Origin: Candidatus Paceibacter sp. | GTDB taxonomy: Bacteria > Patescibacteriota > Patescibacteriia > Magasanikbacterales > UBA922 | Length of the DNA: 64,000 bases | Assembly: GCA_020725175.1 (NCBI GenBank) | Contig: DYFM01000005.1 | Span: 1,855-65,854 of the forward strand | Direction of reading: 5' to 3' | In this document: positions 1,136-55,402 of the stretch, in pieces | Position numbering within the stretch: position 1 is the stretch's first letter | Layout: each line of letters begins with the position of its first letter | The notes under the pieces: model-generated | The model's input: only the letters and a program-made list of their open reading frames with translations | Told to the model about the DNA's origin: nothing | The model's database searches: none | Made by a program: the position numbers and the translations under genes

Positions 1136-1720
1136 ATGCAACATATCAACACCACCTATCTCAACACGCTCAAAAATAATCTTCATGAGTATCACACCAA
1201 GCGCAGAGACATTATCAATAAATCAGGTGACGCGCAACATCATGCCAAACGAGCGATTTTTGCTATGCACCGAGGCGATATGAAGGAAGCCGATGAACGA
1301 TTGAAATTGGCCGGTGACACATTTATCAAGCTGTATAAAGAAATCAAAAAAGATGCCCGTATGCTGAACGAGGGCTCCTACCGTGCCGGAGTAGAGGAAT
1401 ATGTGGAAGCAATACTTTTTCATCAGTTTTTGACCAAAGGTAAAGTGGATAAAGTTCCAGGACTACCTATTGATACAGAGGTGTATCTCGGAGGGCTTTG
1501 TGATGTGCCGGGAGAATTGTATCGATATGCGATAAAATCCGCCAGTGAAAAGAACTTTGCGATGGTAAGACAGTGTGCGGAAATGGGAGAAGAAATAATC
1601 GGCGCGTTGATTGAGTTTAATCTGACCAGTTACTTGCGGAATAAGTTTGATCAAGCAAAGCAGGCGGTGCATAAGCTTGAGATTGTGGTGTATGAGGTTT
1701 CGTTGCGCAATGAAAAATAA
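1136..1720 (+). CDS. Translin-family protein
   Basis: AKRAIFAMHRGD near the N-terminus and EVYLGGLCDVPGELYRYAI ... KLEIVVYEVSLRN at the C-terminus match the conserved translin pattern (SKEAIFLLHR ... EDYLSGVLILASEL ... KVEEVVYDLSIRG). Confidence 0.55.
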   Translation: MQHINTTYLNTLKNNLHEYHTKRRDIINKSGDAQHHAKRAIFAMHRGDMKEADERLKLAGDTFIKLYKEIKKDARMLNEGSYRAGVEEYVEAILFHQFLTKGKVDKVPGLPIDTEVYLGGLCDVPGELYRYAIKSASEKNFAMVRQCAEMGEEIIGALIEFNLTSYLRNKFDQAKQAVHKLEIVVYEVSLRNEK

Positions 1721-1723
1721 TCA

Positions 1724-2305
1724 ATGGAAGGTATGGAAGTATATATTGATGAATCAGGAATTCATAAATTTTCCGGTTATAGTGTTGTTTGTTTTGTTTA
1801 TGTACAAACTGATGGAGTAAAAGAAGTAGAAAAAGCACTGATAAAAGTTGAAAATTTACTTGGAATTAGAAAGTTTCGTTGGTCCGATTTTGGTTCCAAA
1901 CGAGGATGGGTGGTACGAGAAAGTTTTATTCGTCATATAATACCACTACCGTTTCTTTTCAATATTATATATTTTCAAAACCCTATCGCATTTCATTCTG
2001 CTTTTGAGCATGTTCTACATTCTGTTATTCAGCATGATAGAATAAGGAAAATCATTATTGATGGTAAAAAATCGAGAACGTATTCTCGGCGCATAAAAAA
2101 TGTACTACGTAAACATAACATTTCTGTGAAAAAAGTAGTTATGGCAAATGATGGGGGTACTCCAGGGTTACGATTAGCAGATGCTCTTGCCGGGTTATAT
2201 CGATCACATATGGAGAAACCAACGAGCAAAACAAATGATCTGATAAGTTTAATCACTCGTAACAACAAAAAACCGTCCATTATGGACGGTCAGATTGCCC
2301 GGTAG
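1724..2305 (+). CDS. DUF3800-domain protein
   Basis: N-terminal VYIDESG and C-terminal LRLADALAG motifs are typical of DUF3800. The start lies 4 nt after the translin-like gene. Confidence 0.5.
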   Translation: MEGMEVYIDESGIHKFSGYSVVCFVYVQTDGVKEVEKALIKVENLLGIRKFRWSDFGSKRGWVVRESFIRHIIPLPFLFNIIYFQNPIAFHSAFEHVLHSVIQHDRIRKIIIDGKKSRTYSRRIKNVLRKHNISVKKVVMANDGGTPGLRLADALAGLYRSHMEKPTSKTNDLISLITRNNKKPSIMDGQIAR

Positions 2306-2467
2306 TTTGGAAGTCTTCCAAACTCTCCCCATACGGCGGATTTGTCCCGGGTTCTTGTTCTAGATAAACTATATCATTATTTAAGAAGATTGTCAATCAT
2401 TATGTCTCGATACATGTGCTGTGACTTAGACAATTAGCCAAAACCCTCTATTTCCTAAAATTAGAAA

Positions 2468-9830: not shown

Positions 9831-10193
9831 ATGGGGGGTACGGCCAATTTTAAGAATTTGTTTGTTTATCAGTGTTCATTCAAAAATGCCCTAGAGATAT
9901 ATCGTTTCTCTCAACAGTTGCCTCAATACCTACGATATGATATTGCAGATGACCTGAGAAGAGCAGCTAGATCAGTCCCTTCCAATATTGCTGAAGGATA
10001 TGGAAGGAATAAATCAAATGCTGATATTGTAAACTTTTTACGAACTTCGTTGGGATCGAATGATGAAGTGGTGTTTAATCTAGAGTTTTTAAAAGGATTA
10101 TCCTTGATTAACGAAGAGCAGTATCAACATTTTACAGGTCAAAGCAAACTTATTGGGTCGGGCTTACAAAAATTAATACAGTCACTTTCCTAG
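9831..10193 (+). CDS. Four-helix-bundle protein (TIGR02436 / 23S rRNA intervening-sequence protein family)
   Basis: NIAEGYGR motif and an overall ~120-aa helical pattern. Confidence 0.65.
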   Translation: MGGTANFKNLFVYQCSFKNALEIYRFSQQLPQYLRYDIADDLRRAARSVPSNIAEGYGRNKSNADIVNFLRTSLGSNDEVVFNLEFLKGLSLINEEQYQHFTGQSKLIGSGLQKLIQSLS

Positions 10194-10379: not shown

Positions 10380-10513
10380 CGAGGCTATTTGCTCATCTTT
10401 TTTCAGATTGACAATGGCCTGTAAATATAGTAAACTAATGTCGAAGTTTTTAGTGCGCTAAGTTATCTGAGTAGGCTCAGTCAACTTAGAACTCTTAGAA
10501 AACTCAAAAACAT

Positions 10514-10677
10514 TCGGAAGTAGCTCAGTGGTAGTCCCGACAGTGGTCGGGAGTATATCCTCAAGAGCTATATACGGATGAGAATTACAACATATTCGGA
10601 AGTAGCTCAGTGGTAGTCCCGACAGTGGTCGGGAGTATATCCTCAAGAGCTATATACGGATGAGAATTACAACATAT
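10514..10677 (+). repeat. Two tandem 82-bp units, each beginning with the first ~22 nt of tRNA-Asn
   Basis: catattcggaagtagctcagtggtagtcccgacagtggtcgggagtatatcctcaagagctatatacggatgagaattacaa appears twice with period 82. The third unit is the genuine tRNA gene. Each unit contains the hairpin tcccgac/gtcggga. Confidence 0.75.
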
Positions 10678-11087
10678 TCGGAAGTAGCTCAGTGGTAGAG
10701 CAGTTGGCTGTATATCACGGAATGCGTGTTTTATTACGCATACGACTAGCAGCTCTCGATAGGAATATCGGGATGAAGAACAAGGTGAATTGCTGGAAAC
10801 CCTATCAGGTTATGCTGAGGGTAATCAGCAGCCAAGCCCTATATCTCTACGGAGATCAGTAGGGAAGGTTCAGAGACTATCCTGTAATGGGAGTAGGCTG
10901 GTACATGTATCAGTCGAAGCGCCTTGCACCCCATCGCTTTCGAGCAATCGAAATTTGGCGAGGGTGAAGATATAGTCCACGCTTTCCTGACTATATTGTC
11001 GGGACGATAAACCGTTTCGGTTGTCGCTGGAAACAGGAGATATTACGTGTAACCAATTGGTCGTGGGTTCGAATCCCACCTTCCGAG
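10678..11087 (+). tRNA. tRNA-Asn (anticodon GTT) interrupted by a group I intron; exons 10678-10711 and 11050-11087
   Basis: The exons fold as acceptor TCGGAAG/CTTCCGA with discriminator G, D-arm GCTC AGTGGTA GAGC, anticodon stem GTTGG/CCAAT, and T-arm GTGGG TTCGAAT CCCAC. The anticodon loop becomes CT GTT AA when the exons are joined after U35. U1-A72 with G73 fits Asn identity; Thr-UGU is the alternative if the splice site is two nt upstream. Confidence 0.65.
10712..11049 (+). ncRNA. Group I self-splicing intron in the tRNA-Asn anticodon loop, ~338 nt, no endonuclease ORF
   Basis: The conserved core elements are present: P (aattgctggaaa), Q (aatcagcagc), R (gttcagagacta) and S (aagatatagtcc). 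The 5' exon ends in U and the intron ends in G. Confidence 0.7.
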
Positions 11088-11311
11088 CAAAAAAGGGTGA
11101 GCAGGTTCTAACGAGCCTGTTTTCTTGTATATGGAGCCATTTTTGAGAAGTTCGGAAGTGAGAAAAAAAGCACTAACTATTTTTTGCTTCAAATAAGACA
11201 TACTTAATTTATCTCGGTGACTAGTGTCGGTGGGGTTCGGACTACGTGTACATAATAAACAAAATAAGAGTATCATTACTCTTATTTTGAAAAATCATTG
11301 TTTTGGTTAAT

Positions 11312-12079
11312 TTATGTGACTTTTCTCAGCACTTCCCATCGGTCATTTCCTTGATTTGTGTAAAATCCTATTTTGAGAGTCTCATTAAAAATTCTTTGTA
11401 CAAACTCGTTATACTCATCTGCATTTCTATCAAATCGTGGCATTCCTTGTGGATCTAAATATGTACTCCACAAATCTGCTAATCTTCTAAAAGTATTTAC
11501 ATCAATAAGATGCGCATCACTGCTTATTTGTGCCATATCTATATTTCCATTTCCTCTAACTACATATATTTGCTTTATTGAATTTCTCCCATTTGAAAAA
11601 TGATTATATATATCCGCCAAGGAAAAAGAATATTCAGCGTTGTGGCTATGTAGTACCGCAGAAATTACTTCGTCTCGGTAAACAATGAGTCCGGAGGGCG
11701 TAGTTATTTCAGTTCGTTTCAACGGTGCAGAAATCGGAGCGCTATATTTCTCTCCTTGTATCAGTGGTCCAAGTTTGAGGTTTCCCTCATGATCGGCCAC
11801 TACCGAACAACTAAATTCAGTATCATATGAATCATGCAGGTAACGTAACTCATCAGCAATTCGAGAAAAATCGCTTGTCGGCCCGTATTCTGCAATGTCG
11901 TCGTAGGCCTCATCCATGAAATCTAATGGTCTATCAATGAGAACAGAGCTGGGCAAATTTTCAAAACTGGGGGGGGTTTCCAGAATAGAATGTCTTAATA
12001 GATCGTGTGCATCCACAAGTTGTTCACTTCTTCTATCTCTGGAATCTCCTCCAAATCTCTTTGATTCGGAATATGGCAT
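11312..12079 (-). CDS. Hypothetical protein, no recognisable domain
   Basis: 255-aa ORF flanked by a hairpin terminator at 11265-11290. It is the first gene downstream of the tRNA cluster. Confidence 0.45.
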   Translation of the reverse strand: MPYSESKRFGGDSRDRRSEQLVDAHDLLRHSILETPPSFENLPSSVLIDRPLDFMDEAYDDIAEYGPTSDFSRIADELRYLHDSYDTEFSCSVVADHEGNLKLGPLIQGEKYSAPISAPLKRTEITTPSGLIVYRDEVISAVLHSHNAEYSFSLADIYNHFSNGRNSIKQIYVVRGNGNIDMAQISSDAHLIDVNTFRRLADLWSTYLDPQGMPRFDRNADEYNEFVQRIFNETLKIGFYTNQGNDRWEVLRKVT

Positions 12080-12325
12080 ATGGTTATTTTATGAATTATA
12101 GATTTTGATATGGATAAAATATATCAAATCTTGTTGTTATAGGCAAATTTTTGCACTTGATAAATTTAAGGTAGGTGGATTTACAATCAAAAGATTTTGG
12201 AACTTGTTCCTATATTCGAGCAAACACTCTTCCATACACACTGGTATGGTAAAGACAAAAACATACTCAAAAGAGTATGTTTTTGTTATACTGTACTTGC
12301 TACTTAAACCAGTATTTATTTCTGT

Positions 12326-13197
12326 ATGAATAAAAGAGAATGCAAACAAAAAATACTTGCTGTATATCCAGGGATGGTAAATAGAAGTTTTGAGTACATA
12401 ACAACTGGTAGTGACGATGATGTGGTTATTGTCGGTAAAAAAAATGTTTTTACGTTTCCAAAAAACAAGCCTGGATGTCGTGAAAAATTTGTAACTGAAA
12501 TTAATATACTACCCTTGTTTCAACCTATTGTTAGTCTGTCAATTCCAAAATTAATCTATATTGCCCCGGATATTTCTTTTGGCATGTATAAATATGTGCC
12601 AGGTGTACCATTTACAAAAAAATTGGCCTTGACACTGACTGCAAGACAAAAAACCGCAGCTGCAAAAAAAATTGCCACGTTTCTTTCTGCATTGCATAGC
12701 TTTTCTGCGAACAAAGCCAAGAAGCATGGAGTAACTGATGCATGGTCTGAACGTGACGCACGCTCTTTCTATCTGAAACGAGCAAGGACTGTTTTCAAAA
12801 CACTGAGCTATGATTTTGGTATTGTGCAACGCTTGTTCCGAAAGTACCCGCTCAGCGAAACAACTTACCAAGCTGTTGTTCATCAAGATTTTACCAGCGA
12901 TCATATCTTATTTGACCCAGCAAAAAAGAAGATAATTGTGTTATTGACTTTGGTGATGTACAGATTGCGGATCCGGCAGTTGATATGAGTCGCCTCTGGG
13001 AGTATGGTGAAGATTTTATAGATTTGGTGTTACAATTTTATAAACGAGTAGACATCGATATAAAACAACGAAGTTACCGATGGTGGATATATCACAATAT
13101 AAACTTGATTGAATATGGGTATGAGAAAAAAAAGATTTCTATGATGAAACGAGGTTACAGGAATTTGAAACATATGTATAAAAACCGCTCTCAATAA
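12326..13197 (+). pseudogene. Aminoglycoside/choline-kinase-type phosphotransferase (APH family) broken by a frameshift in an A6 tract
   Basis: Frame 1 carries the Brenner motif HQDFTSDHILFDP. After gcaaaaaag (about 12920-12930) the +1 frame carries VIDFGDVQIADPAVD, the DFG-type motif. Reading A7 instead of A6 would fuse the two ORFs 12326-12988 and 12985-13197. Confidence 0.6.
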
Positions 13198-13228
13198 TGA
13201 AAGCGGTTTTTATGTTTAACATGTATCA

Positions 13229-16200
13229 TCACCCTCCCGTCACATAATACACAATCTCCACCGGCTTCACACTATATTCTCCGGTAATCATCAACGTCAG
13301 AGGTCCTTCGGTAACGTCAGTTGGGATGATATAGGTATCATTTGAGAAACTTCCACTTGTATTAGCATTGAACGAATGAACCACCTCCTCGCCGGTTCGA
13401 TCGGTTCGAATTTGAATTGGTTCGTTTGGCAGATAGCCGCTACCGATAAATTGTATAGCAGTACCAGGTGCCCCGGCGTATGAGCCAAGTTCTGCCCCGA
13501 GATATACTTCTCCGTGGATAAAGTTTGCTGTAGCTGTGCTACCGGTAGAGGCTCCGGTAGCAGACACGGTTCGTTCACCGGACAGAAAACCGGGGACAGT
13601 GGTGTTGAAGATAAGGTTGCCAGATTCATCGGCAGTAGTTGTACCAAGTAGAAGTCCGTCAAACGTCACTATAACATCTTCACCAGCTCCAAAACCCATA
13701 CCGCTAACAGTAAGCGCTTCTCCACCAAAGCCATAGTAGTGTGATAGTTCAATTCCGGAAGTAAGAGGGGCTACTGTGATTGGTACGGAAACAATAGTAG
13801 CACTGAGTTGTCCGGAAAAAGTAAAAATTACTTCTGTCGCTCCATACGGAATCTGTAATTTGGTATCTGCAAAGGTACCAAATTCATTGGTAGAAAGGGT
13901 AGAAAGAGGTGTGTCGTTTAGTGTAACACGGATCTCTTCACTGGCTGCAAAACCGCTACCTTCAAATGTAACATATGATCCGGCTGGAGTATACCATGTG
14001 TTTGGAGTTACTTCAGGAGTAAAACCGGATAGAGTGATTGTTACCTCTGAAAACGCGCCACTGTTTGTTCCTGAAATGATAAACGTAGCTCCACCGGTAG
14101 TCGTAACCGGGATAGTAATAGGCTCAGTATCAATTTCTCCGGCTGTACTTGAAACTGTTTCAGCAAGTATTTCATCATTTAGAGAAATGGAAACAGGTTC
14201 TTCGCCGCTAAATCCGGTACCTGAGAAGGAGATCTGGCTTCCTGGAGCGGTATACCAGGTACTTGGGGTAACTTGTGGAGTAAATGGTGCAAGCGTAAGA
14301 GTCGTGATGCCGGTCGCGTTACTCATGCCTCCGGTTATCTTTACCGGTACGGTTGAGTTTGATAGACCAAGTGGAATGACTACCGGGGTAGGAGAGACGG
14401 TTCCGTCATGTTCTGCATAGGCATTGATTGACGTTTCACCAACTTCAATTGTTACCGGCTCATTTGGAGCAAACCCAACTCCTGAAACATGTACTGGTGT
14501 TCCGGGGAGAGCATAGTATGAATCTAGTTCAATATATGGAGTAAGTGCGGCAATAGTAACCGTAACTTCAGATGTACCACCACTTTCTTGCCCGATAAAG
14601 ACATACGTTTCTGAGCCATCAGATTCGAAGCCGGTTGTAACGGTTAGGTTCTCAAAATGTCCGTCAATATCTGCCTGTGTTGTTTCTAACATGTTTCCAT
14701 CATTCCTCATGATAATGTTTTCACCGGGAGCAAATCCATCTCCGGAAAAAGTGAGGGGGCTTCCGGCTGGAAGATACCATGTCTGTGGCGTAACCATCGG
14801 ATACAAGCTGCCGAGAGAAATTTCTAGTTTACTTTCTAATCCACTCTTCATTCCTGTTGCATGAATTGTAATACGTGATCCGGAAAGGGGAGCGACAAAC
14901 GGCGCATTCTCGATAAGCACGCCTTCCTCATCGGTTTCAACTTCTATCGGTGCTCGATCATTCATACGAATTTCAACAATGTCCTCTGGAGCAAATCCGC
15001 TACCACTTACCGTAAATGGTTCTGCTGGAAGAATGTAATAAGAAGAAGGGGAGAGAGTGGGGTAAAAGGTGCCAATACTTAGTGATACAGTTGCTTTTGC
15101 TTGGCTCTCCTGACCTTCAAACCGCACTAGACGTGTTTCTTGCCAGGTGTAGGGAATAGTTATTGCCCCAGCTTCGGTAAATGCACCATCAACATCAGTT
15201 GTTATAGTAGTTAATAACTCTCCTGTTACATCGTCCATAACTTGCACCTCTTCATCCGTTCCAAATCCAGTTCCGGTAAATGAAACGTCTGTTCCGGGAA
15301 GAATATAATAGTTATTTGGTGAAACCTGGGGTGTAAATGGAGCAATGGTAATGAGTACAGTTGCTTCGGTTTTACTATTTGTTCCGGAAAGAACTATCGT
15401 GCGACTACTGTTTGACCAGGTAAAAGGAATGGTAAATGTTCCGGCAGTGAGAAATGTGCCGGTACTGTCTGAAGTAAATGAAGCGAGAGGTGTAGAATTG
15501 TTTCCTTCTGTTACCACAATCGTTTCACTATTCCCAAACCCGCTACCGGAAAAAGAAATGGTATGTCCAGCAATGTTGTGATAGCTTGATGGTTCAACGA
15601 GAGAATTGAACGAACCAATCGTGAGCGCAACCTCAGCTTGACCACCACTCGTTTGTCCAATGAGGGTAAATGTGCGAATGCTGTTTAGCCAATCATATGG
15701 AATGACAATTGCGCCGGCATCAAAAAAATTACCGTCTGAATCTGAGCTGAACGTTGCAATAGGTTCGGTGGGGTTACTGGTTTCGTACACGTCAATTGTT
15801 TCGTGGATTGCATACCCTCCACCGGAAAACATGAGCGTTTCTTCCGGAAGAAGATAGTGGGTAGAAGGAGTAACATTTGGAGTAAAGGTACCAATTGTAA
15901 TGTCTACCGAAGCCTCGGCATTACTCGTATTTCCTCGTAACGTAAACGTTTGCGATCCGGTCAGGCTGAGCGGAATAGGTATCGTACCGGCATCTGTAAA
16001 CGATCCATTTGCATCAGCCTGAATAGAGGCGAGTGGAGAGCCATCGTCTCCTTTGTAGACCTGTATTTCTTCATGGGTCGCAAATCCACTGCCGGAAAAA
16101 CTGAGTGATTGAGTAGGAAGCACATAATACGTGGACGGAGAAATACTCGGGAAAAAACCACCAACGTAAAAATAGTCAATGGTTGTTGCGGCAGAGGATT

Positions 16201-16765
16201 GCCCGGTAGCGGTGAGCTCATATGTACCAAATGCAATTGTGGGAACAGTAGCCGACGCGTCTTGAAATGAACCGTCTGCGTTGGCGGTGGTAATTCCTAT
16301 TTCTTTGCCTTGGATAGTAAACGAAATTGTTTCGTCTGGGGCAAAACCGTTTCCGTCAATTGAAAGTAGGCTGCCGGGAGTGTTATTTCCGGATACTGTG
16401 ATTGTTGGTGTGAACGGAACTATGTAATAGCTATTGCTTTGCAGCTCTTGTGTTTCAGACCCTTTGGCAAAGATGGGTAATGGGCCCTGTGGTGTATTAT
16501 CCGGAATATTAATTTGAACATTGAAAAAGCTATCCTCTCCGGCAGTTACGGTCGCAACTTCACCACTTTCCGGAGTAAACAAATACAGTGTTATCGTCTC
16601 TCCCGGTATCCAACCACCTCCTTGTACTTCAACCTCCGTGGCTGGGCCGCTAAAAGAGCTTAAGGTAAGATATGCGGCTGCTTGTATATATTGAAAAGGG
16701 ATAATTAGCATAAGACCGGCTACAGTTATAGCGGTTATGCGAAAGAAGAAAAGCCGTGTTCTCAT
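13229..16765 (-). CDS. Large secreted tandem-repeat protein (1178 aa; about 13 Ig-like/IPT-TIG-like repeats of roughly 85-90 aa)
   Basis: Signal peptide MRTRLFFFRITAITVAGLMLIIPFQYIQA, then repeated blocks such as PSTYY.LP...SFSGSGF...E.I.V. The region is noticeably richer in GC than its surroundings. Confidence 0.7.
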   Translation of the reverse strand: MRTRLFFFRITAITVAGLMLIIPFQYIQAAAYLTLSSFSGPATEVEVQGGGWIPGETITLYLFTPESGEVATVTAGEDSFFNVQINIPDNTPQGPLPIFAKGSETQELQSNSYYIVPFTPTITVSGNNTPGSLLSIDGNGFAPDETISFTIQGKEIGITTANADGSFQDASATVPTIAFGTYELTATGQSSAATTIDYFYVGGFFPSISPSTYYVLPTQSLSFSGSGFATHEEIQVYKGDDGSPLASIQADANGSFTDAGTIPIPLSLTGSQTFTLRGNTSNAEASVDITIGTFTPNVTPSTHYLLPEETLMFSGGGYAIHETIDVYETSNPTEPIATFSSDSDGNFFDAGAIVIPYDWLNSIRTFTLIGQTSGGQAEVALTIGSFNSLVEPSSYHNIAGHTISFSGSGFGNSETIVVTEGNNSTPLASFTSDSTGTFLTAGTFTIPFTWSNSSRTIVLSGTNSKTEATVLITIAPFTPQVSPNNYYILPGTDVSFTGTGFGTDEEVQVMDDVTGELLTTITTDVDGAFTEAGAITIPYTWQETRLVRFEGQESQAKATVSLSIGTFYPTLSPSSYYILPAEPFTVSGSGFAPEDIVEIRMNDRAPIEVETDEEGVLIENAPFVAPLSGSRITIHATGMKSGLESKLEISLGSLYPMVTPQTWYLPAGSPLTFSGDGFAPGENIIMRNDGNMLETTQADIDGHFENLTVTTGFESDGSETYVFIGQESGGTSEVTVTIAALTPYIELDSYYALPGTPVHVSGVGFAPNEPVTIEVGETSINAYAEHDGTVSPTPVVIPLGLSNSTVPVKITGGMSNATGITTLTLAPFTPQVTPSTWYTAPGSQISFSGTGFSGEEPVSISLNDEILAETVSSTAGEIDTEPITIPVTTTGGATFIISGTNSGAFSEVTITLSGFTPEVTPNTWYTPAGSYVTFEGSGFAASEEIRVTLNDTPLSTLSTNEFGTFADTKLQIPYGATEVIFTFSGQLSATIVSVPITVAPLTSGIELSHYYGFGGEALTVSGMGFGAGEDVIVTFDGLLLGTTTADESGNLIFNTTVPGFLSGERTVSATGASTGSTATANFIHGEVYLGAELGSYAGAPGTAIQFIGSGYLPNEPIQIRTDRTGEEVVHSFNANTSGSFSNDTYIIPTDVTEGPLTLMITGEYSVKPVEIVYYVTGG

Positions 16766-17057
16766 AGATTTTGTAATAAAAAAGAATACAGATGAGCTAT
16801 CCCGGTTTGGATGCTGCTATTTCTATTGTCCATATTTATGTAGCAATTGTCAAATTTTTTACTCTATGTGTATTTTTTTCAATATACTTGTTAATTTTTG
16901 CTTTTAGCCTATTACAGCCTGTTACTCTGTCCCAAGAAGGCAAATAAGACATGAAAGAAATGTGAATTTAAAGAAACCTTCTCATCTATACTTATTATTG
17001 CAGGGTTACAATAAAAAAAGATACCTGTGAAGTATCAATTAAAGACAAAAACTATTG

Positions 17058-17555
17058 TTATGCGCGTATCGAAAGTATACTAAATTTTTTTTCACTATCG
17101 CGAATGACAATACTACCGGTATCATGCGCTTTTTTCCCTAGTAGTGCCGCACCAATAGGCGAGGTATGAGAGATTATTCCTTGAGACGGATTTGTTTCTG
17201 AGGAGCCAAGAATTGTGAATGTTTTTTCTTCTCCATCGAGAAGAATGGTGACAGTACTGCCGACTTGTACTGTATCAGTTTGGGATAGAGTAATAATTTC
17301 CGCTCGCTTCAACTGTTCTTCAAGAACAAGAATACGACTGTTGATTCCCCGCAATCTTCCTTTGGCGAGTTGATATTCAACATTTTCTGAAAAATCACCT
17401 AGCTCTGCTAATCGAGATACTTCCAGTGTGGCAGGCTGTCTACGTTTGTATAAACTTTTTAGTTCATGTTCAAGTTCATCGTATTTCTCTTGTGTCATGA
17501 GCGGGTCCTGCCTTTGAGTCATGTATTTTCCAGGTTTTCGTTTGGGTAGTTGCAT
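17058..17555 (-). CDS. greA: Transcription elongation factor GreA, copy 1
   Basis: N-terminal coiled coil with ELGDFSENVEYQLAKGRL, and a C-terminal FKBP-like domain. The true start may be an internal ATG (MTQEKYDEL). Confidence 0.8.
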   Translation of the reverse strand: MQLPKRKPGKYMTQRQDPLMTQEKYDELEHELKSLYKRRQPATLEVSRLAELGDFSENVEYQLAKGRLRGINSRILVLEEQLKRAEIITLSQTDTVQVGSTVTILLDGEEKTFTILGSSETNPSQGIISHTSPIGAALLGKKAHDTGSIVIRDSEKKFSILSIRA

Positions 17556-27964: not shown

Positions 27965-28318
27965 ATGCAAGATATTCAAGAAATTTTTAATAAAATTCAG
28001 GCGACTAGAAAACAGATAAAAGATATAAAAAAAATGATGAAAGACGCACTTGACGGAACGCAAGAGTATACAGAAATCAACGAGCAGATGAAAATATTGC
28101 GTGAAAAAAAGAAACGAGTAGAACAAGTAATAAAAGAAACCATGAGTTCAGAGCTAACAAAACTTGAAGATTTGCAAATTGATCTAGCGAGCGATCTCGA
28201 GATGATGAATGACATTTCTCTTACCAAGGCTATGAATGGTGAAACAATTACTCTAAAAGATGAGTATGACAATGAATACGAGCCGATTTTTGCAGTGAAG
28301 TTTAAAAAGGTGAATTAA
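27965..28318 (+). CDS. Hypothetical coiled-coil protein
   Basis: Charged heptad-like sequence with no recognised motif. Confidence 0.35.
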   Translation: MQDIQEIFNKIQATRKQIKDIKKMMKDALDGTQEYTEINEQMKILREKKKRVEQVIKETMSSELTKLEDLQIDLASDLEMMNDISLTKAMNGETITLKDEYDNEYEPIFAVKFKKVN

Positions 28319-28388
28319 AGTTATCCACATATTGAATGAAATAGTAAGAGGAGTATAATCGACTCAGTAATTCTTAAGCGCCTTTTAT

Positions 28389-28619
28389 ATGAGCGTTACT
28401 GTATACTCTACGCCATCTTGCCCATATTGTGTGATGGTGAAAAATTATCTAACGGAAAAGAATATTCCGTTTGAGGACCACAATGTTGGTGCCGACCGAG
28501 CCAAAGCCGAGGAGATGGTTCAAAAGTCCGGTCAAATGGGTGTTCCGGTGGTTGATATCAACGGCACCATCATCGTAGGATTTGACCAAGCTCGTATCAA
28601 TCAAGCCCTCGGAATCTAA
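28389..28619 (+). CDS. Glutaredoxin-like protein (NrdH/Grx family)
   Basis: CPYC active site, 76 aa, and a GVP...V motif. Confidence 0.75.
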   Translation: MSVTVYSTPSCPYCVMVKNYLTEKNIPFEDHNVGADRAKAEEMVQKSGQMGVPVVDINGTIIVGFDQARINQALGI

Positions 28620-28781
28620 CGGAAGTACAAGTTTACAGAACAAAAGTACCATCTAGCGGTACTTTTCTGTTTTTACAAAATATGATACACTCATGTAGTT
28701 CATTGATTCCTAGGAATTATTTCGCCCCTCCAATGAGAAACGTACAATCAACCAATAAACTATTAAACTAATAAACCAATT

Positions 28782-29378
28782 ATGTCCAAAGAAGTCATTT
28801 TCGATATAGAAACCATCGGTGATATAAAAGATCTGAGCACTATGAAAATCACAGTCGTTTCTATTTACGACTATGAAACCAACGCATACTATTCATTTGA
28901 CGAACATGAGTTACATGGTCTTTGGCCATACATGGAAAAAGCGGAACGAATTATTGGGTACAACAGTGAACACTTTGATTTGCCTATTCTCAATCGCTAT
29001 TACGCCGGTGATCTGACGAAGTTTCCGCACTTGGATTTATTGGTCGTCATTAAAGAAATGGCCGGTAAACGCTACAAACTGGATGATATAGCAAAAGCAA
29101 CACTTCAAATAAGTAAAAGTGCCGATGGATTACAAGCAATGAAATGGTATGAGGAGGGGAGAATTGATGAGATTAAAAAATACTGTGAACAAGATGTAAA
29201 AGTTACCAAAGAAGTGTATGAGTTTGGATTAAAAAATAAAATGCTTTATTATCCAACCCTCACCGGCGATCTTATGCCAATTGCCGTTAATTTTGATATG
29301 CCGGTTCAACCGGTGGGAGTATCTGGAGGAGAAGTGGGGAATGATGGAAAAAGTTTTAACTTGACTTTGCCCTTCTAA
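28782..29378 (+). CDS. DEDDy-type 3'-5' exonuclease domain protein
   Basis: Exo I FDIET, Exo II HFDLPIL, Exo III YCEQDVK. Confidence 0.55.
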   Translation: MSKEVIFDIETIGDIKDLSTMKITVVSIYDYETNAYYSFDEHELHGLWPYMEKAERIIGYNSEHFDLPILNRYYAGDLTKFPHLDLLVVIKEMAGKRYKLDDIAKATLQISKSADGLQAMKWYEEGRIDEIKKYCEQDVKVTKEVYEFGLKNKMLYYPTLTGDLMPIAVNFDMPVQPVGVSGGEVGNDGKSFNLTLPF

Positions 29379-29554
29379 GCATTGATTATACAGATTTTAG
29401 ACGGATTACGCAGAGATGTCTAAACATTGATTACACAGATTAAAAAAGATTGCACAGAGGTGTAATCTTTTTTGTCTGAATTTAGTTATAAGTAGGTTTA
29501 AGACCGATCAGTGTAATCATCCTGTAATCCCTCTAAAATCTGTATAATCAATGC
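29379..29554. mobile_element. 176-bp MITE-like element with 23-bp perfect terminal inverted repeats (gcattgattatacagattttaga), flanked by TAA on both sides
   Basis: The left TIR at 29379-29401 is the exact reverse complement of the right TIR at 29532-29554. Internal sub-repeats (gattacgcagag, gattacacagat, gattgcacagag) are present. It fills the convergent gap between two genes and abuts both stop codons. Confidence 0.55.
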
Positions 29555-30246
29555 TAAAAGATTTCAAAATGCACTTCCTTTGCATCCACTCCATTTTTTA
29601 GAAGAATCTCTCGAACATCTTTCACCATAGCAGCGCTGCCACAAAGGTAAAAACTATGGGAAACCAAATGGTGAAGAATATGTTCTGTTACACGACCGCG
29701 TAGTCCAGACCAGCCTCCATCCGGTTTTGGTTGAGAGAGAGTAATTTGATAGTCAAATAGAGGATGTTGTTGTTTTAAGACTTCTAATCTATCTGCCCAA
29801 AACACATCTTCTTCATTTCGAACTCCAAAAAGTAGTCGGATTTCTTTGCCGGTTTTTTTTACTTCCAGTTCTTCTCGTATCATTCCCATAATCGGAGCCA
29901 GTCCGGCTCCGGTAGCGACAAAATAGTAGGCCTGTACATCATTTGTGCAAACAAACCGCCCCCGTGGACCACGAAATTCAGCTGTTTCTCCTACAGTTAG
30001 ATTTTGAAAATAATTTGATGCTTTTCCATCCGGAAGACACTTTACACACAATTCCAAGTGCTCATCTTGTGAGGTGGACGCAAGTGAATATGACCGGATA
30101 ATAGGTTCATCACCGGGTACAAAAAATTGAATAAACTGCCCGGCTTCAAAAGTGAAATCAGTAGGCTTAGTGAAATGAAGTTCTAGGGTATTATTGGCAA
30201 TTTTTTCTTTTGAGATGAGCGTTGTGGTGTAGCGTTCGTTGGACAT
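29554..30246 (-). CDS. FAD/NAD(P)-binding oxidoreductase (ferredoxin-NADP reductase-like)
   Basis: RSYSLAS FAD-binding motif, a GTGLAP-like NAD motif (ATGAGLAP), and a ~230-aa length. Confidence 0.7.
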   Translation of the reverse strand: MSNERYTTTLISKEKIANNTLELHFTKPTDFTFEAGQFIQFFVPGDEPIIRSYSLASTSQDEHLELCVKCLPDGKASNYFQNLTVGETAEFRGPRGRFVCTNDVQAYYFVATGAGLAPIMGMIREELEVKKTGKEIRLLFGVRNEEDVFWADRLEVLKQQHPLFDYQITLSQPKPDGGWSGLRGRVTEHILHHLVSHSFYLCGSAAMVKDVREILLKNGVDAKEVHFEIF

Positions 30247-30295
30247 ACTGAGAGGAAATATTATTCTTTTAATTTTATGTGTGGGTGAATAGACC

Positions 30296-30352
30296 TCGGA
30301 TATAACAGATGAAACGGATCAGTTCTAATCCGTTTCATCTGTTATATCCGTG
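30296..30352. repeat. Perfect 23-bp-arm palindrome (cggatataacagatgaaacggat ... atccgtttcatctgttatatccg); AACGGAT-core family
   Basis: Inverted repeat with a 9-nt loop, upstream of the Rrf2 regulator promoter. Confidence 0.55.
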
Positions 30353-30380
30353 TTGCTATTATTTATATAAGTGTAATGAT

Positions 30381-30410
30381 TGACAATTCGCTAAATTTCC
30401 TATATCATAC
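30381..30410 (+). promoter_or_regulatory. Sigma-70-like promoter for the Rrf2-suf operon
   Basis: TTGACA, a 17-bp spacer, then TATCAT, about 30 bp upstream of the Rrf2 start. Confidence 0.45.
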
Positions 30411-30439
30411 TCCGCAAGTATGATTTTTTCAAGCTGTGT

Positions 30440-30829
30440 ATGATCAAAATCAGCAAACAAGTCGATTATGGTATTCAATTTTTGCAAGAATTAGCTAAAA
30501 AAGAAGCTAATTCACCGCTTAGTATAGCAGATTTTTCCAAAAAGTCCAGTATTTCTTTTCTTTTTCTACAAAAAATAGCCAAAAAACTGAAAGATGCCAA
30601 CATGGTTACTGCTACCAAAGGTGCCAATGGTGGATATATATTAAAACGACCACTGTCAACCATCAATATGAAAGAACTTATTGAAACCATTGATGGCTCA
30701 TTTGGAGTTGTTGATTGCCAAAAAAAAGGAAAGGCTTGCCCAAAAGAAAAGAAATGTGGAGTAAAGCCATTGTTTGAAGGAGTGAATGAACAAGTCTTGT
30801 CAGTGTTGTCTTCGACCTATCTAATGTAA
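30440..30829 (+). CDS. Rrf2-family transcriptional regulator (IscR/SufR-like) with a Cys cluster
   Basis: N-terminal winged helix (SKQVDYGIQFL) and C-terminal CxxxxxxCxxxxxC. It is the first gene of the suf operon. Confidence 0.75.
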   Translation: MIKISKQVDYGIQFLQELAKKEANSPLSIADFSKKSSISFLFLQKIAKKLKDANMVTATKGANGGYILKRPLSTINMKELIETIDGSFGVVDCQKKGKACPKEKKCGVKPLFEGVNEQVLSVLSSTYLM

Positions 30830-30897
30830 ATAATTGTTATTCGTCAGTTCAAATCCGCTTTATCTGTTTTATTCGCAGATCAATCAAGTTCAACGTT

Positions 30898-32307
30898 ATG
30901 CCTAAAAAAAAGTCACAACTTCATTTTGACGTAAACCGAACACTCTACGAACAAGCCAACGAAGATCGATCGCGATACAGAGCGACTCCGGGGCTTACAG
31001 AAGATGTGGTACGAGAAATTTCATCTCAAAAAAATGAGCCGAATTGGATGTTGGAAAAACGACTGAAGGCACTTGCGTTATTTCAAGAAAAACCGATACC
31101 CACGTGGGGACCAAGCCTAGCAAACCTCAATTTGGATGAGATTGTATATTTTGTTCGCCCTGATACCGAAGAAGCCAGAAAATGGGAAGATGTGCCGGAT
31201 GATATCAAAAAAACCTTTGAGCGTTTGGGAATTCCTGAAGCTGAGCGAACCGCTCTTGCTGGTGTCGGCGCACAATATGATTCTGATGTAGTCTATCATA
31301 GTATCAAAGAAGATCTTCAAAAAAAGGGAGTAATTTTTGAAAACATGGATGTGGCGGTAAAGGAATATCCTGAACTGGTACAAAAGTACTTTATGACACA
31401 GTGCGTACCAATTCATGATCATAAATTTGTTATGCTTCACGCAGCCGTGTGGTCAGGCGGGACATTTATTTATATACCAAAAGGTGTCAAAGTAGAACTT
31501 CCGCTCCAAGCATATTTTCGAATGAATGCTGAAAGTGGGGGGCAATTTGAGCATACACTCATTATTGCGGATGAAGACGCGGAGGTTTCTTACATTGAGG
31601 GCTGCTCTGCACCACGCTATACCACAAATTCACTTCATGCCGGTTGTGTAGAAATTTTTGTTCATAAAAATGCAACAGTGCGATATTACTCTATTGAAAA
31701 TTGGTCCAAAAATACCTACAACTTAAATACCAAGCGTGCCCTCGTCGATGCCGGTGGAAGAATTGAGTGGGTGAGTGGTAATATGGGTTCTGGAACTACT
31801 ATGCTGTATCCGGCATCAATTTTGCGTGGTGAAGGAGCTTCAGCAGATAATCTCGGCATTGCAGTAGCCGGTCCGGGACAGCATCAGGATATTGGAGCGA
31901 AAACGTTTCATGTGGCACCAAGAACCAAATCAGTTACTCGTTCTCGGTCAATTTCGTTTGGGGGAGGTATTGCCAGTTTTCGAGGAATAGTAAAAGTAAG
32001 TAGAAACGCGGTTGAAAGTGATTGTTCGGTCTCGTGTGATGCTTTACTCCTTGATGGAAAGTCCAGCGCCTACACATATCCCGGAATGGAAATAAATACC
32101 AATGATGTGACAGCAGCTCACGAAGCGAAGACGGGGAAAATTGACGAGGAAGTATTGTTTTATTTGATGAGTAGAGGACTGTCGCAAGAACAGGCGACAC
32201 AATTGGTCGTTGGGGGATTTGTCGAACCGATTGTGAAAGCACTACCGCTTGAATACGCACTCGAGCTGAATCGATTGGTGGAGATGGAGATTGAGGGGTC
32301 TGTCTAG
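30898..32307 (+). CDS. sufB: Fe-S cluster assembly protein SufB
   Basis: SufB/SufD beta-helix family and 469-aa length. Confidence 0.8.
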   Translation: MPKKKSQLHFDVNRTLYEQANEDRSRYRATPGLTEDVVREISSQKNEPNWMLEKRLKALALFQEKPIPTWGPSLANLNLDEIVYFVRPDTEEARKWEDVPDDIKKTFERLGIPEAERTALAGVGAQYDSDVVYHSIKEDLQKKGVIFENMDVAVKEYPELVQKYFMTQCVPIHDHKFVMLHAAVWSGGTFIYIPKGVKVELPLQAYFRMNAESGGQFEHTLIIADEDAEVSYIEGCSAPRYTTNSLHAGCVEIFVHKNATVRYYSIENWSKNTYNLNTKRALVDAGGRIEWVSGNMGSGTTMLYPASILRGEGASADNLGIAVAGPGQHQDIGAKTFHVAPRTKSVTRSRSISFGGGIASFRGIVKVSRNAVESDCSVSCDALLLDGKSSAYTYPGMEINTNDVTAAHEAKTGKIDEEVLFYLMSRGLSQEQATQLVVGGFVEPIVKALPLEYALELNRLVEMEIEGSV

Positions 32308-32391
32308 CTAAACATTGTCATCCTGAATGTAGCCGAAGCGATGTGAAGGATTTGTCAAAAATAAAAAGAAAATAATTGATAGAGCTTCGGA

Positions 32392-32455
32392 TTTAACGGA
32401 TTGGACGAATTAGAACGGATCAGTTAATATCCGTTTCATCCGTTAAATCCGAAGG
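32392..32455. repeat. Palindromic element cttcggatttaacggat ... atccgttaaatccgaag; AACGGAT-core family
   Basis: Long imperfect inverted repeat between sufB and sufS. Confidence 0.5.
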
Positions 32456-32524
32456 TCTATTCAACCCTTAAAAATGTAGAAGCCCGCCGTGATTCTCTCG
32501 AATGGCGGCGGGCAGTGCTCACCC

Positions 32525-32665: not shown

Positions 32666-33895
32666 ATGCTTTTAAATCTAAAAGAATGTAAGATTTGCTT
32701 TCCAATATTCCAAAAACACCCCAATCTAGTCTATCTAGATTCAGCTTCCAGTACCCAAACACCACAAACTGTTCTTGATGCAGTGAACGATTACTATATA
32801 AACTACCGAGCAAATATTCATCGAGGATTATATGATTTGAGTGGTACTGCAACACAGAAATATGAGGAAGCCAGAAAAACAGTAGGAAAGTTTATCAGCG
32901 CAAGTTCGAAAGAAATTGTCTTCACATCCGGAACAACTCATGGTCTAAATCTACTCGCCTCAGGAGTACAAAATACTCTTCAGCCGGGTGATAATATTGT
33001 GTTGACTGAAATGGAACATCATGCGAATTTAATTCCGTGGCAAAAAATTGCAAAGAAGAAGGGGATGGAGCTACGATTTATACCAATGAACAGGGAACAG
33101 AGGACAGGGAACAGTTACGAATTGGGTGTTTCTGACATTGAAAATTTGATTGATGAAAAGACGAAAATCGTATCTTTTACTCTGGTATCAAATACGCTCG
33201 GAACAATTAATCCGGCGGAAGAAATTATTGCTCGAGCAAAAAAAATTGGTGCAATCACAATTGTCGACGCAGCACAGGCAATGGCGCACATGCCGATTGA
33301 TGTAAAGATATTAGACTGCGATTTTATGGTATTTTCCGGACATAAAATGTATGGTCCAACCGGAATTGGTGTTTTATACGGAAAAAAAGAAAGGTTGGAA
33401 GCACTTGAACCATTTTTTTATGGCGGAGACATGGTCCGTTCTGTATCGTATGAAGATGCAACTTGGGCAGATGTACCGGAAAAATTTGAAGGGGGTACGC
33501 CAAATATTGCGGGTGCGATTGGACTTGGTGCTGCGGTTGAATTTATTCAGTCTACTGGGTTTGATAAAATACAGAATCACGAAACACAATTAACTAATAA
33601 ACTAATAAACCAATTAAATAGTATACCTGATGCTCGGATAATTGGATTGAATTCAGAGGAAAAAAGAATTGGAGTAGTCTCATTTTTACTAAAAGACATT
33701 CATCCTCACGATGTGGCGGAAATATTGAATCGCGACCAGGTATGTGTCCGTACTGGGCATCACTGCACTATGCCACTTATGAAGAAACTTGGTTTACCAG
33801 GAACAGTACGTGCTTCAGTTGGGATTTACAATACGGAAGATGATATTGATAAACTTTTTGCGTCTTTAGCGAGAGTTATGGCTGTTTTTAAATAG
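32666..33895 (+). CDS. sufS: Cysteine desulfurase SufS (class V aminotransferase)
   Basis: YLDSASSTQ start region, PLP-binding SGHK, and the active-site Cys motif RTGHHC. I placed the start at the internal ATG (MLLNLKE). The exact coordinate is +/-1 nt because my manual count disagrees by one with the ORF track in this region. Confidence 0.8.
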   Translation: MLLNLKECKICFPIFQKHPNLVYLDSASSTQTPQTVLDAVNDYYINYRANIHRGLYDLSGTATQKYEEARKTVGKFISASSKEIVFTSGTTHGLNLLASGVQNTLQPGDNIVLTEMEHHANLIPWQKIAKKKGMELRFIPMNREQRTGNSYELGVSDIENLIDEKTKIVSFTLVSNTLGTINPAEEIIARAKKIGAITIVDAAQAMAHMPIDVKILDCDFMVFSGHKMYGPTGIGVLYGKKERLEALEPFFYGGDMVRSVSYEDATWADVPEKFEGGTPNIAGAIGLGAAVEFIQSTGFDKIQNHETQLTNKLINQLNSIPDARIIGLNSEEKRIGVVSFLLKDIHPHDVAEILNRDQVCVRTGHHCTMPLMKKLGLPGTVRASVGIYNTEDDIDKLFASLARVMAVFK

Positions 33896-33897
33896 AC

Positions 33898-33968
33898 CGC
33901 GGATTTAACGGATGGAACGAATTAAAACGGATCCGTTCCAATCGGTCTAATCTGTTAAATCTGCGGTC
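33898..33968. repeat. Palindromic element gaccgcggatttaacggat ... atctgttaaatctgcggtc; AACGGAT-core family
   Basis: Long inverted repeat between sufS and sufU. Confidence 0.5.
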
Positions 33969-33983
33969 TATTAAGCATAATCT

Positions 33984-34376
33984 ATGAAGCAAACCGACCC
34001 AATCTACAAAGAAATGATCCTATATCTATATAAAAATCCACTAAACAAAAAACAGTTGGCCGATTTTGATTGTTCACATAAAGAATACAATCCCAGCTGT
34101 GGAGACGAAATAGAAATCATGATCAAATTTGATGAGTCCGGTAAAATTATCGATATTGGACACCAAGGTGAAGGCTGTGCTGTTTCACAAGCAGCGGTTT
34201 CTTTGTTGACAGAAGAAGTAAAGGGTAAAAGCAAAGAAGAGGTGATGAGTTTGACTGAAGAGGAAATGATTAACATGCTGGAAATTCCTATTTCTCACAC
34301 GAGATCAAAATGTGCATTACTGGGTTTGAAAACTATTCTATTTTGTTTTGATAGACCTTCGAATAAGACGAATTAA
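33984..34376 (+). CDS. sufU: SufU/IscU-like zinc-dependent sulfur-transfer scaffold
   Basis: NPSCGDE, GEGCAVSQA and KCA give three conserved Cys in the NifU-N-like fold. Confidence 0.7.
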   Translation: MKQTDPIYKEMILYLYKNPLNKKQLADFDCSHKEYNPSCGDEIEIMIKFDESGKIIDIGHQGEGCAVSQAAVSLLTEEVKGKSKEEVMSLTEEEMINMLEIPISHTRSKCALLGLKTILFCFDRPSNKTN

Positions 34377-34430
34377 ACGGATATTAACAGATCCCTTCTA
34401 ATCAGTTGCACTCGTTAAATCCGAAGATCT
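34365..34430. repeat. Imperfect palindromic element (gacgaattaaacggat ... cgttaaatccgaagatc); AACGGAT-core family
   Basis: Located between sufU and sufC. It shares the ttaaacggat and atccg words with the other copies. Confidence 0.4.
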
Positions 34431-34443
34431 ATCAACATTTTAT

Positions 34444-44616: not shown

Positions 44617-44664
44617 TAGCTCTCACAAACAACAGACTATTATTAGTCATGTTGAACAAGTAAA

Positions 44665-44742
44665 CAGACCGCGAATGAAACGGATTAAACAAAATGCAAC
44701 GAATTCGTTTTTATCTATCTAATCTGTTTCATTCGCGGTCTA
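44665..44742. repeat. Palindromic element agaccgcgaatgaaacggat ... atctgtttcattcgcggtct; AACGGAT-core family
   Basis: A 20-bp near-perfect inverted repeat around a ~38-bp core that contains AACGAATTCGTT. Confidence 0.5.
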
Positions 44743-44781
44743 TTTTGCTTCATAGCTATATAACTAAAAAATTATCTAAAA

Positions 44782-54682: not shown

Positions 54683-55402
54683 CTATGTAGAAAAAGCTAT
54701 TATTTTTTCTACCAGTAATTCTTTATGAGTGAGATGAAGCCCATGTTTTCCGTTTTTTACAACAATACAAGTACAGTGTGGTATTTTTTTTGCAATTCTC
54801 TTTCCTTGATTAAGTGGTACATAAGAATCAAGTTCTCCCCACATGACCAAGGTTGGTGTTTGTATGGTTGTTAAGAGGTGGGACATGTCTTCCTTGGTAA
54901 TTTTTTGAAAAATTTGTCGCTGAATACCAGATGTCTTATTATAGTCCGGTGAATCTGCCACTTTGTAGAGGACCTTTTTTCCTATTGATTCAAATGAGTG
55001 AATAAACGGTAAACGAAACACTTGTTTTCCTATTTTAGCAAGAATCAGAAAAAAATACCATCGTAAACCATTTCTTTTTCGATAAATCGGACTCCCACTA
55101 AGAACTAATTTTTCCACAGCACCATGGTTGTGGGCCACGAGGTATGTTGCAACCACTCCGCCAAACGAATGTCCAAGTAGTATTACATTTTTATATTGGT
55201 TAGTAGAAAGTTTTTTCTCTACAAACTCTGCGTACTCCTTCACCCCCCAAACAGAATTCGGGCAGGGCTCATCCCCAAAACACGGTAAATCAATTACTGA
55301 AACATCAGCAAAAAAATCTTTTGCGTAGGAAACAAAATCAGCCCATGTTTCATGACTACCGCCCCAGCCGGGAAGAATGATGAGGGTAGATTGGCTATTC
55401 AT
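54683..55402 (-). CDS. Alpha/beta-hydrolase fold protein
   Basis: GHSFGG nucleophile elbow; ~240 aa. Confidence 0.65.
   Translation of the reverse strand: MNSQSTLIILPGWGGSHETWADFVSYAKDFFADVSVIDLPCFGDEPCPNSVWGVKEYAEFVEKKLSTNQYKNVILLGHSFGGVVATYLVAHNHGAVEKLVLSGSPIYRKRNGLRWYFFLILAKIGKQVFRLPFIHSFESIGKKVLYKVADSPDYNKTSGIQRQIFQKITKEDMSHLLTTIQTPTLVMWGELDSYVPLNQGKRIAKKIPHCTCIVVKNGKHGLHLTHKELLVEKIIAFST

Follow-up and report, generated by a model that had tools for sequence, protein, structure and literature searches.

Mixed gene content between an intron-bearing tRNA-Asn gene and GreA in Candidatus Paceibacter, including a predicted secreted protein of thirteen Ig-like domains

We analysed a stretch of 64,000 nucleotides (nt) from Candidatus Paceibacter sp. 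(GTDB lineage Bacteria; Patescibacteriota; Patescibacteriia; Magasanikbacterales; UBA922), which corresponds to positions 1,855 to 65,854 of the forward strand of contig DYFM01000005.1 (assembly GCA_020725175.1) and is called the window below. The subject is the block at 11088-17057 of this window, located between a tRNA-Asn gene that is interrupted by a group I intron and the gene for GreA. The block contains a gene for a 255-amino-acid (aa) JAMM-like protein, a broken aminoglycoside phosphotransferase (APH) gene, and a gene for a 1178-aa protein made of immunoglobulin (Ig)-like repeats. An earlier inspection of the letters alone (the sequence-only reading) placed the block directly after tRNA-Asn, which is correct since the 3' exon ends at 11087, and proposed a horizontal origin or rapid repeat-driven evolution of a host-interaction adhesin. 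The features of the block and its right-hand flank are as follows.

11099-11122: terminator-like hairpin that follows the tRNA-Asn 3' exon
11260-11289: terminator-like hairpin of the 255-aa gene
11312-12079, minus strand: JAMM/MPN-fold protein of 255 aa, a rare family of the Candidate Phyla Radiation (CPR)
12255-12286, no strand: perfect 14-nt inverted repeat with a 4-nt loop, ACAAAAACATACTC / GAGTATGTTTTTGT, in the 246 nt that separate the divergent JAMM-like and APH genes
12326-13197, plus strand: APH(2'')-like phosphotransferase pseudogene, split into open reading frames (ORFs) 12326-12988 and 12985-13197
13178-13213, no strand: hairpin with a 16-bp stem, between the converging ends of APH and the 1178-aa gene
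13229-16675, minus strand: mature part of the 1178-aa protein, 13 contiguous Ig-like repeats (aa 31-1178) and stop codon; the whole ORF is 13229-16765, minus strand
16676-16765, minus strand: Sec-type signal peptide, by inspection (MRTR, hydrophobic core, then a site between IQA and AA)
16825-16853, minus strand: promoter-like site TTGACA-17-GACAAT, about 60 nt upstream of the ATG of the 1178-aa gene, a consensus match only
17058-17555, minus strand: GreA (Pfam GreA_GreB domains), the conserved right-hand flank of the variable interval

The block consists of three transcription units in mixed orientations, each with its own terminator-like hairpin. The hairpin at 13178-13213 is likely to act as a two-way terminator, and the inverted repeat at 12255-12286 is a possible, putative shared operator. 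On balance, 11088-17057 is probably the local content of a rearrangement-prone slot that extends from the intron-bearing tRNA-Asn to GreA, and its three units have separate histories. One unit would carry a rare JAMM/MPN-type, probably zinc-dependent, (iso)peptidase gene; a second would be an APH(2'')-like kinase gene, long resident in the neighbourhood and now inactivated by a 1-nt deletion; the third would encode a secreted protein of 123 kDa and be monocistronic.

The evidence for the slot comes from relatives of this genome, the closest of which are Candidatus Magasanikbacteria (CPR/Patescibacteria); L-numbers label loci and P-numbers label homologous proteins. Anchoring on GreA in metagenomes provided an informative synteny test. 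Anchoring on Era in 38 species genomes was uninformative for the block; PyrG-L9-Era is kept and nothing downstream of Era is conserved, and because everything there differs, Era-anchored synteny is unable to test the block. L056 and L060 have the same frame as the window (MurE, DivIC, SurA, tRNA-Thr, FtsE, FtsX, tRNA-Gln, intron-bearing tRNA-Asn, interval, GreA), and their interval holds 3.5-4.0 kb of unrelated genes encoding GT2, VTT/DedA, a methyltransferase, DUF302 and membrane proteins. This comparison of presence and absence, proposed as a check in the sequence-only reading, agrees with its description of the content as non-housekeeping: both flanks are kept and what lies between them differs. 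In other relatives the gap between GreA and tRNA-Asn is 0.4 (L106), 1.1, 1.2, 3.3, 5.9, 6.2, 6.9, 8.8 or 9.5 kb with differing cargo, and GreA is found at <=10 kb from tRNA-Asn in about 16 of 80 related loci. Homologues of the 1178-aa protein or the JAMM-like protein were found in none of 118 anchored loci.

The three genes also occur in independent contexts elsewhere. L135 has an intact APH gene 1.1 kb downstream of its intron-bearing tRNA-Asn. In L006, L007 and L138, a tRNA-Asn is located 6-8 kb downstream of the homologue of the 1178-aa protein and on the opposite strand, so that tRNA-Asn is near the gene or its homologue in four of seven contexts, the window included. JAMM-like homologues are located in unrelated, accessory-looking contexts, one beside a distant APH, NUDIX and AbiEii and another among Bro-N, SocA/Panacea and PemK genes. 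In L056 and L135, the slot is bounded on its far side by a block homologous to window 27965-32307; the slot here has therefore grown to about 17 kb and also holds Era-L9-PyrG-CysS. These data are read most simply as a neighbourhood that has long been plastic, in which genes have been differentially lost, translocated or left to decay, and not as one imported island. In summary, the block is a mosaic in a variable slot and not a recent island.

Some further observations were made around this slot. The end of the intron-less tRNA-Asn of L068 overlaps with a serine-recombinase remnant (15280-16434), which has Recombinase and Zn-ribbon domains and in which no resolvase domain was detected. Independent Logan assemblies of different runs have contig breaks at the same two points, about 12170-12192 and 10863-10869 (L003/L053 and L053/L054). 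These shared breaks around the JAMM-like gene could be strain-level alternative junctions or simply low coverage. Genes with zf_Tbcl_2 (PF23477) recur at most a few kb from homologues of the 1178-aa protein (L004, L006, L007, L138 and L071 are listed), with SPW (PF03779) directly following two of them (L007, L138). One zf_Tbcl_2 gene is inside the GreA-to-tRNA-Asn slot of L071.

The 1178-aa protein is 123.5 kDa, has an isoelectric point (pI) of 4.05, lacks cysteine and is rich in Thr (14%), Gly (11%) and Ser (10%). Its autocorrelation peaks at 87 residues. Segmentation with a hidden Markov model recovered 13 of 13 repeats of 86-92 aa (a period of 258-276 nt), which tile aa 31-1178 with no linkers, no remainder and no other domain, and the same was observed in 46 relatives. 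The C-terminus, ...VEIVYYVTGG, is the end of the last domain, and YYVTGG is conserved in the family. Full-length members also share the layout of the N-terminus: a basic start, a hydrophobic core, an AxA-type small-residue site and then repeat 1 with Y/F-x-T-L-x-S-F-S-G. The protein would be exported by Sec, and its signal peptide would be cut after the AxA site. The sequence-only reading had described about 13 near-identical repeats of about 260 bp. The number and period are right, but the repeats are not near-identical: they share 16-48% of amino acids (mean 28%) and 31-55% of codon-aligned nucleotides (mean 43%), Tandem Repeats Finder reported nothing in the gene, and a blastn self-comparison gave no internal matches.

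The fold was modelled for repeats 3-4. AlphaFold2, using 35 orthologous pairs, predicted a 7-strand sandwich for each repeat (predicted local distance difference test score, 96.4; predicted template-modelling score, 0.82). Foldseek against the PDB gave 570 matches at E<=1e-3, and the listed top matches are almost all tandem Ig-like proteins with <=18% identity. The matches include PECAM, the Bap C region, the MG domains of complement C3 and α2-macroglobulin, invasin InvE and the Haloferax S-layer protein 7ptp. In addition, NCBIfam NF058592 (PGS family Ig-like domain) matched six stretches with 117.5 bits against a cut-off of 45 (E 2e-34). Pfam TIG (PF01833) matched marginally, with 21.8 bits against 20.9 (1.9e-4), and covered one of the 13 repeats. 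By this model the repeats have an Ig-like β-sandwich fold, as had been supposed for modules behind a signal peptide; of the folds suggested beforehand, TIG is reached by one repeat only. The closest known domains are NF058592 (GxPGS_dom) and, with one marginally matching repeat, IPT/TIG. This is a domain-level label without known function, and most of the repeats are too diverged for either model. Because 13 such domains stand back-to-back without linkers, the mature chain would be an extended rod of about 45-50 nm.

A homologue search across 5.8 billion protein clusters found 47 full-length relatives with 32-49% identity in Magasanik-, Taylor- and Saccharibacteria lineages, all composed of a signal peptide and 9-13 such repeats only. 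When the window protein was compared with homologues that also have 13 repeats, repeat i best matched repeat i in 13 of 13 cases (P0004) and in 12 of 13 cases (P0003). The terminal repeats keep this positional match even in 10-repeat proteins of Saccharibacteria. Identity to the same-numbered repeat of a homologue is 36-57%, and the best identity to another repeat within the 1178-aa protein is 31-47%. Across the family, conservation is highest in repeat 13 (scores of 291-293). Furthermore, the identical 1178-aa sequence was found on seven contigs, including Logan assemblies of two sequencing runs. Because the repeats are position-specific orthologues and the sequence does not vary among these contigs, the array is, as judged from these sequences, ancient and stable, except that the central repeats 3-6 look as if they had been duplicated later. 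The individual conservation of the positions suggests a larger assembly in which every domain has a specific place.

The base composition of the 1178-aa gene had been noted as visibly different from that of the flanks, and this is true of the raw values. Its GC content is 0.453-0.454 versus 0.395, the highest of 59 ORFs (z+1.9), and its raw tetranucleotide distance is the top outlier in the window (z=+3.6). The GC excess lies at codon position 2 (GC2 0.504, z+3.6); positions 1 and 3 are ordinary, and GC3 is 0.346 (z+0.5). For the three block genes, the z values of GC3 are +0.5, 0.0 and -1.0. The amino-acid sequence together with the pooled synonymous usage of the window predicts a GC content of 0.442 for this gene, and the residual is within the spread of housekeeping genes. 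The order-corrected tetranucleotide signature (TETRA) correlates normally, at 0.61. The raw signal is therefore caused by the richness of the protein in Thr, Gly and Ser, and also in Pro and Ala, and a foreign signature is not what it reflects.

Elsewhere in the window, a 202-aa ORF at 55395-56003 (minus strand), within a minus-strand gene run, has a GC content of 0.25 and a GC3 of 0.14 (z about -4). Its GC content is far under the prediction from its amino-acid sequence (z -5.8), and it is the sole strong synonymous-site outlier of the window, and a foreign origin is more plausible for it than for the flagged block. The ORF at 1136-1720 (plus strand) has an unusually high GC3 (0.456, z+3.0) and a GC content above its amino-acid prediction (z+4.1). 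Palindromic intergenic repeats of about 75-90 nt, 73-86% alike, are located at 30288-30360, 32376-32465, 33888-33972, 34348-34436 and 44661-44745 and resemble repetitive extragenic palindromic (REP) or miniature inverted-repeat transposable (MITE) elements. A DUF3800-II RNA (Rfam RF02961, 54.5 bits) is found at 2288-2361 (minus strand). The gene at 9831-10193 (plus strand), between FtsX and tRNA-Gln, encodes a '23S rRNA intervening sequence protein', four-helix and Avd-like.

The APH gene was rightly described as broken. A 1-nt deletion in a Gly codon at 12938-12939 leaves only 'GT' where the intact 288-aa Magasanikbacteria protein P0084 has this codon, and it separates the catalytic loop (HQDFTSDH) from the IDFGD motif. 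In the frame analysis, ...HQDFTSDHILFDPAKKKII is read in frame 0 and CVIDFGDVQIADP... in that of the second ORF; once rebuilt, the protein gives a gap-free alignment with P0084 over 284 aa at 57% identity. The split is also present in independent Logan assemblies. Matches were obtained to Pfam APH (1.6e-7), NCBIfam APH(2'') (3.7e-15) and APH(2'')-Id in the PDB (3e-16). The kinase is thus similar to APH(2'') aminoglycoside phosphotransferases, with APH(2'')-Ie/IVa and APH(2'')-Id as best matches and with the catalytic loop and IDFGD kept, but it differs from them in being frameshifted and far below the resistance cut-offs: the resistance-family score is 56 bits against a cut-off of 600, and the ORF is not intact.

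The 255-aa protein had been called an orphan. It is not one, since it has five homologous clusters besides its own (about 50% identity), and 13 representatives were found in 1.84 billion proteins. It had no match in Pfam, NCBIfam, PHROGs or PADLOC, and no JAB/MPN model of Pfam, NCBIfam or PADLOC matched at E<=0.1. E88, H144, H146, S153 and D156 are invariant in the 16 sequences of the family, and the protein shows the MPN fold. In comparison with the motif E...HxHx7Sx2D, the spacing from His to Ser is 6, not 7, in all but one of the 16 sequences. The gene probably encodes a putative zinc-dependent (iso)peptidase of JAMM/MPN type. Compared with known JAMM/MPN+ metalloproteases (AMSH/Sst2, Rpn11, archaeal JAMM1, CBASS Cap3 and BilC), the spacing from the second His to Ser is one residue shorter in most members, the Pfam JAB match is lacking, an extra N-terminal helical region is present, and no gene for a ubiquitin-like or CD-NTase partner is found near the 255-aa gene.

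In a distant CPR genome (L046, 8981-10759), a JAMM-like homologue lies directly beside an APH-family kinase gene, with Era at <=4 kb. A link between this kinase and the APH of the window was tried and dropped, since the two share only 28% identity over 82 aa; the kinase-JAMM pair is a weak lead, and a functional pairing, though possible, is unsupported. A 1089-aa neighbour in L046 was rejected as a homologue of the 1178-aa protein because it is not homologous.

How the block arose can now be weighed. It is improbable that the block as a whole is a single genomic island, targeted to the tRNA and acquired recently, with which the adhesin, the kinase and the hypothetical gene arrived together. 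It does adjoin the 3' end of tRNA-Asn; relatives in which both flanks are kept lack its content; no other part of the window is as extreme in raw GC and tetranucleotide frequencies; and L068 has a recombinase remnant beside tRNA-Asn. In the first two respects the block is like tRNA-linked genomic islands. However, no integrase or recombinase domain was found in the three block genes or their neighbours, and no integrase or transposase was found in or near the block. A 25-mer of the tRNA-Asn 3' end occurs once only in the window (<=3 mismatches), and a general repeat search gave no other candidate for the direct repeat of an attachment (att) site. GC3, TETRA correlation and the GC content expected from the amino acids are all normal and synonymous codon usage is only slightly off; the units are separate and of mixed orientation; and homologues of APH and of the 1178-aa protein occur near tRNA-Asn elsewhere independently of each other, so that the links of the cargo genes to the site are independent and in part ancestral, which sets the block apart from such islands. 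PHROGs and PADLOC scans of the block genes gave nothing significant, and an origin from phage or known defence systems is therefore not supported. As far as these sequence comparisons go, a horizontal origin of the block is not supported. The other proposal was an adhesin of contingency type, with quick expansion, contraction and homogenisation of its repeats. The tandem architecture, the regular period of 258-276 nt and the variation from 9 to 13 repeats across the family would suit it, but we regard it as very improbable: repeats with only 31-55% nucleotide identity, in which Tandem Repeats Finder and blastn see no self-similarity, are positional orthologues, their sequence is identical in independent assemblies from several runs, and their number shifts only across deep divergences. 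The rapid evolution of the array that had been proposed is thus contradicted.

Several points weigh against the mosaic and against the reading of the 1178-aa protein as an ancient, exported array. The nearest relatives are only about 49% identical in the 1178-aa protein and about 76% in Era, and since no available genome is closer than this, recent gain or loss is undatable. The serine-recombinase remnant that abuts tRNA-Asn in L068 means that mobile elements do use this site in some relatives. The family of the 1178-aa protein is rare and patchy (47 clusters across Magasanik-, Taylor- and Saccharibacteria), and old transfers among CPR lineages would also fit. Synonymous codon usage of its gene deviates most in the window (z=-3.1), although the deviation per codon is small, because this is the longest gene and gives the test most power. 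The signal peptide was judged by eye and not by a predictor, and inspection together with Pfam and NCBIfam revealed no anchor (SLH, LPXTG or a C-terminal transmembrane segment) and no tip domain.

As to its role, the 1178-aa protein is most likely a structural protein of the cell envelope, by analogy an S-layer (surface-layer)-type sheet or a surface fibre, which may also mediate attachment. A preprint predicted multi-Ig-like S-layer candidates for Patescibacteria (bioRxiv 10.1101/2024.05.28.596244). Like these candidates and the tandem Ig-like S-layer protein of Haloferax volcanii (csg, PDB 7ptp), it has a signal peptide (by inspection), large size, an acidic pI, no cysteine, a Thr/Ser-rich and all-Ig-like chain with position-specific domains, and apparently a monocistronic gene; unlike them, it has no recognised anchoring segment and its family is rare and patchy, and the likeness is one of general properties. 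The label 'host-interaction adhesin' is an inference. A fibrillar host-attachment adhesin, in which an uncleaved N-terminal hydrophobic segment would serve as anchor and the best-conserved C-terminal domain as tip, is rather unlikely, though less so than the other alternatives. Tandem Ig-like stalks are typical of bacterial adhesins, the Bap C region and InvE are among the fold matches, repeat 13 is better conserved than the others, the C-terminal YYVTGG is conserved, and CPR bacteria are thought to be episymbionts. The protein shares a secreted tandem β-sandwich chain with Bap, SasG and invasin/intimin, which are among the Foldseek matches, but it lacks an adhesive tip, LPXTG or another recognised anchor, its repeats are strongly diverged and not near-identical, and their number is constant among available assemblies. 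AxA-type sites directly before repeat 1 across the family point to cleavage, and domains so divergent and position-specific are more in keeping with a fixed assembly than with a spacer stalk. It is scarcely credible that the 1178-aa protein is targeted by a diversity-generating retroelement, although Ig-like surface proteins of CPR commonly are; the Avd-like gene at 9831-10193 is 3 kb away, but no template/variable repeat pair for the block was found in the 64-kb window and no reverse transcriptase gene within 10 kb, and the idea was rejected. A structural assembly, sheet or fibre, is favoured over a spacer-stalk adhesin because of the position-specific diverged domains, the fixed architecture and the S-layer-like chemistry, though only tentatively, since no anchor was recognised.

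The left-hand flank of the slot, the tRNA-Asn gene, has the following features.

10512-10675, plus strand: two exact 82-nt units directly upstream of tRNA-Asn (Tandem Repeats Finder, 2.3 copies, 100% identity)
10678-10711, plus strand: 5' exon of tRNA-Asn(GTT), which ends after anticodon U35 (ARAGORN with introns allowed)
10712-11049, plus strand: group I intron of 338 nt at tRNA-Asn position 35/36 (Rfam RF00028)
11050-11087, plus strand: 3' exon of tRNA-Asn; the block starts directly after it

RF00028 matches at 10722-10999 with 76.2 bits. ARAGORN with default settings misses this tRNA, and with introns allowed it reports tRNA-Asn(gtt) i(35,338). The joined exons fold as a canonical cloverleaf, with U before the 5' splice site and G at the end of the intron, and the intron (10712-11049) has no room for a homing endonuclease gene. 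Homologous introns are located at the same site of tRNA-Asn in L007, L056, L060, L075 and L135; with introns allowed, ARAGORN miscalls the same gene as tRNA-Thr(tgt) or as tRNA-Ser with an intron in L007, L083, L095, L104 and L135. Group I introns at tRNA-Asn 35/36 in Patescibacteria have already been published, and self-splicing in vitro was demonstrated for other members of this intron type (Nakagawa et al. 2026, PMC13011429). The window intron agrees with them in tRNA, insertion site, lack of a homing endonuclease gene and in being missed by standard tRNA finders. The difference is that the window, L075 and L135 have a copy of the first 21 nt of the tRNA and a conserved hairpin ahead of the gene.

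In the window, each 82-nt unit combines a leader with 21 nt from the start of tRNA-Asn and the hairpin TCCCGAC-AGTG-GTCGGGA, and the 22-mer of the tRNA 5' end occurs in three exact copies. The number of units is that of the window assembly, and Logan contigs end inside the repeat. The same design occurs once each in two Magasanikbacteria-like genomes, at L075 17781-17896 (minus strand) and L135 6369-6463 (plus strand; = L136), so that the upstream element is present in three of the eleven intron-bearing tRNA-Asn loci seen here. The shared hairpin pattern is TCCCGAC-N4-GTCGGGA, with a compensatory change from GAC/GTC to GAT/ATC in L075. The fragment matches the tRNA 5' end of its own genome, exactly in the window and L075 and at 18 of 21 nt in L135. 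In L135 the fragment has a promoter-like site ahead of it and would therefore fall in the leader of the precursor. RNA folding of the unit is stable in the window (z=-4.1), and only the short hairpin is common to L075. A term search of the text of PMC13011429 returned no mention of duplicated, tandem or pseudogene copies.

CPR/Patescibacteria are uncultured and tiny and are probably attached to other cells; characterised surface proteins of the group are very few. Apart from the 1178-aa gene, the locus is ordinary, a plastic region beside a tRNA gene with one decaying gene. There is also a point of method, in that high GC and a repeat period can mimic a foreign, fast-evolving adhesin; both signals here are due to amino-acid composition and ancient duplication. 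It is conceivable, and we put it forward tentatively, that a subset of CPR has in the family with 9-13 domains its long-sought envelope or attachment structure, that the secreted, anchor-less chain of Ig-like domains, each position with a fixed partner, would self-assemble into an S-layer or a host-contact fibre, and that the proximity of tRNA-Asn would be left from an ancient, reshuffled neighbourhood of envelope genes. This analysis defines a conserved, CPR-restricted family of apparently secreted, all-Ig-like proteins with a high-confidence domain model, and this family is a concrete candidate for studies of the envelope or of attachment.

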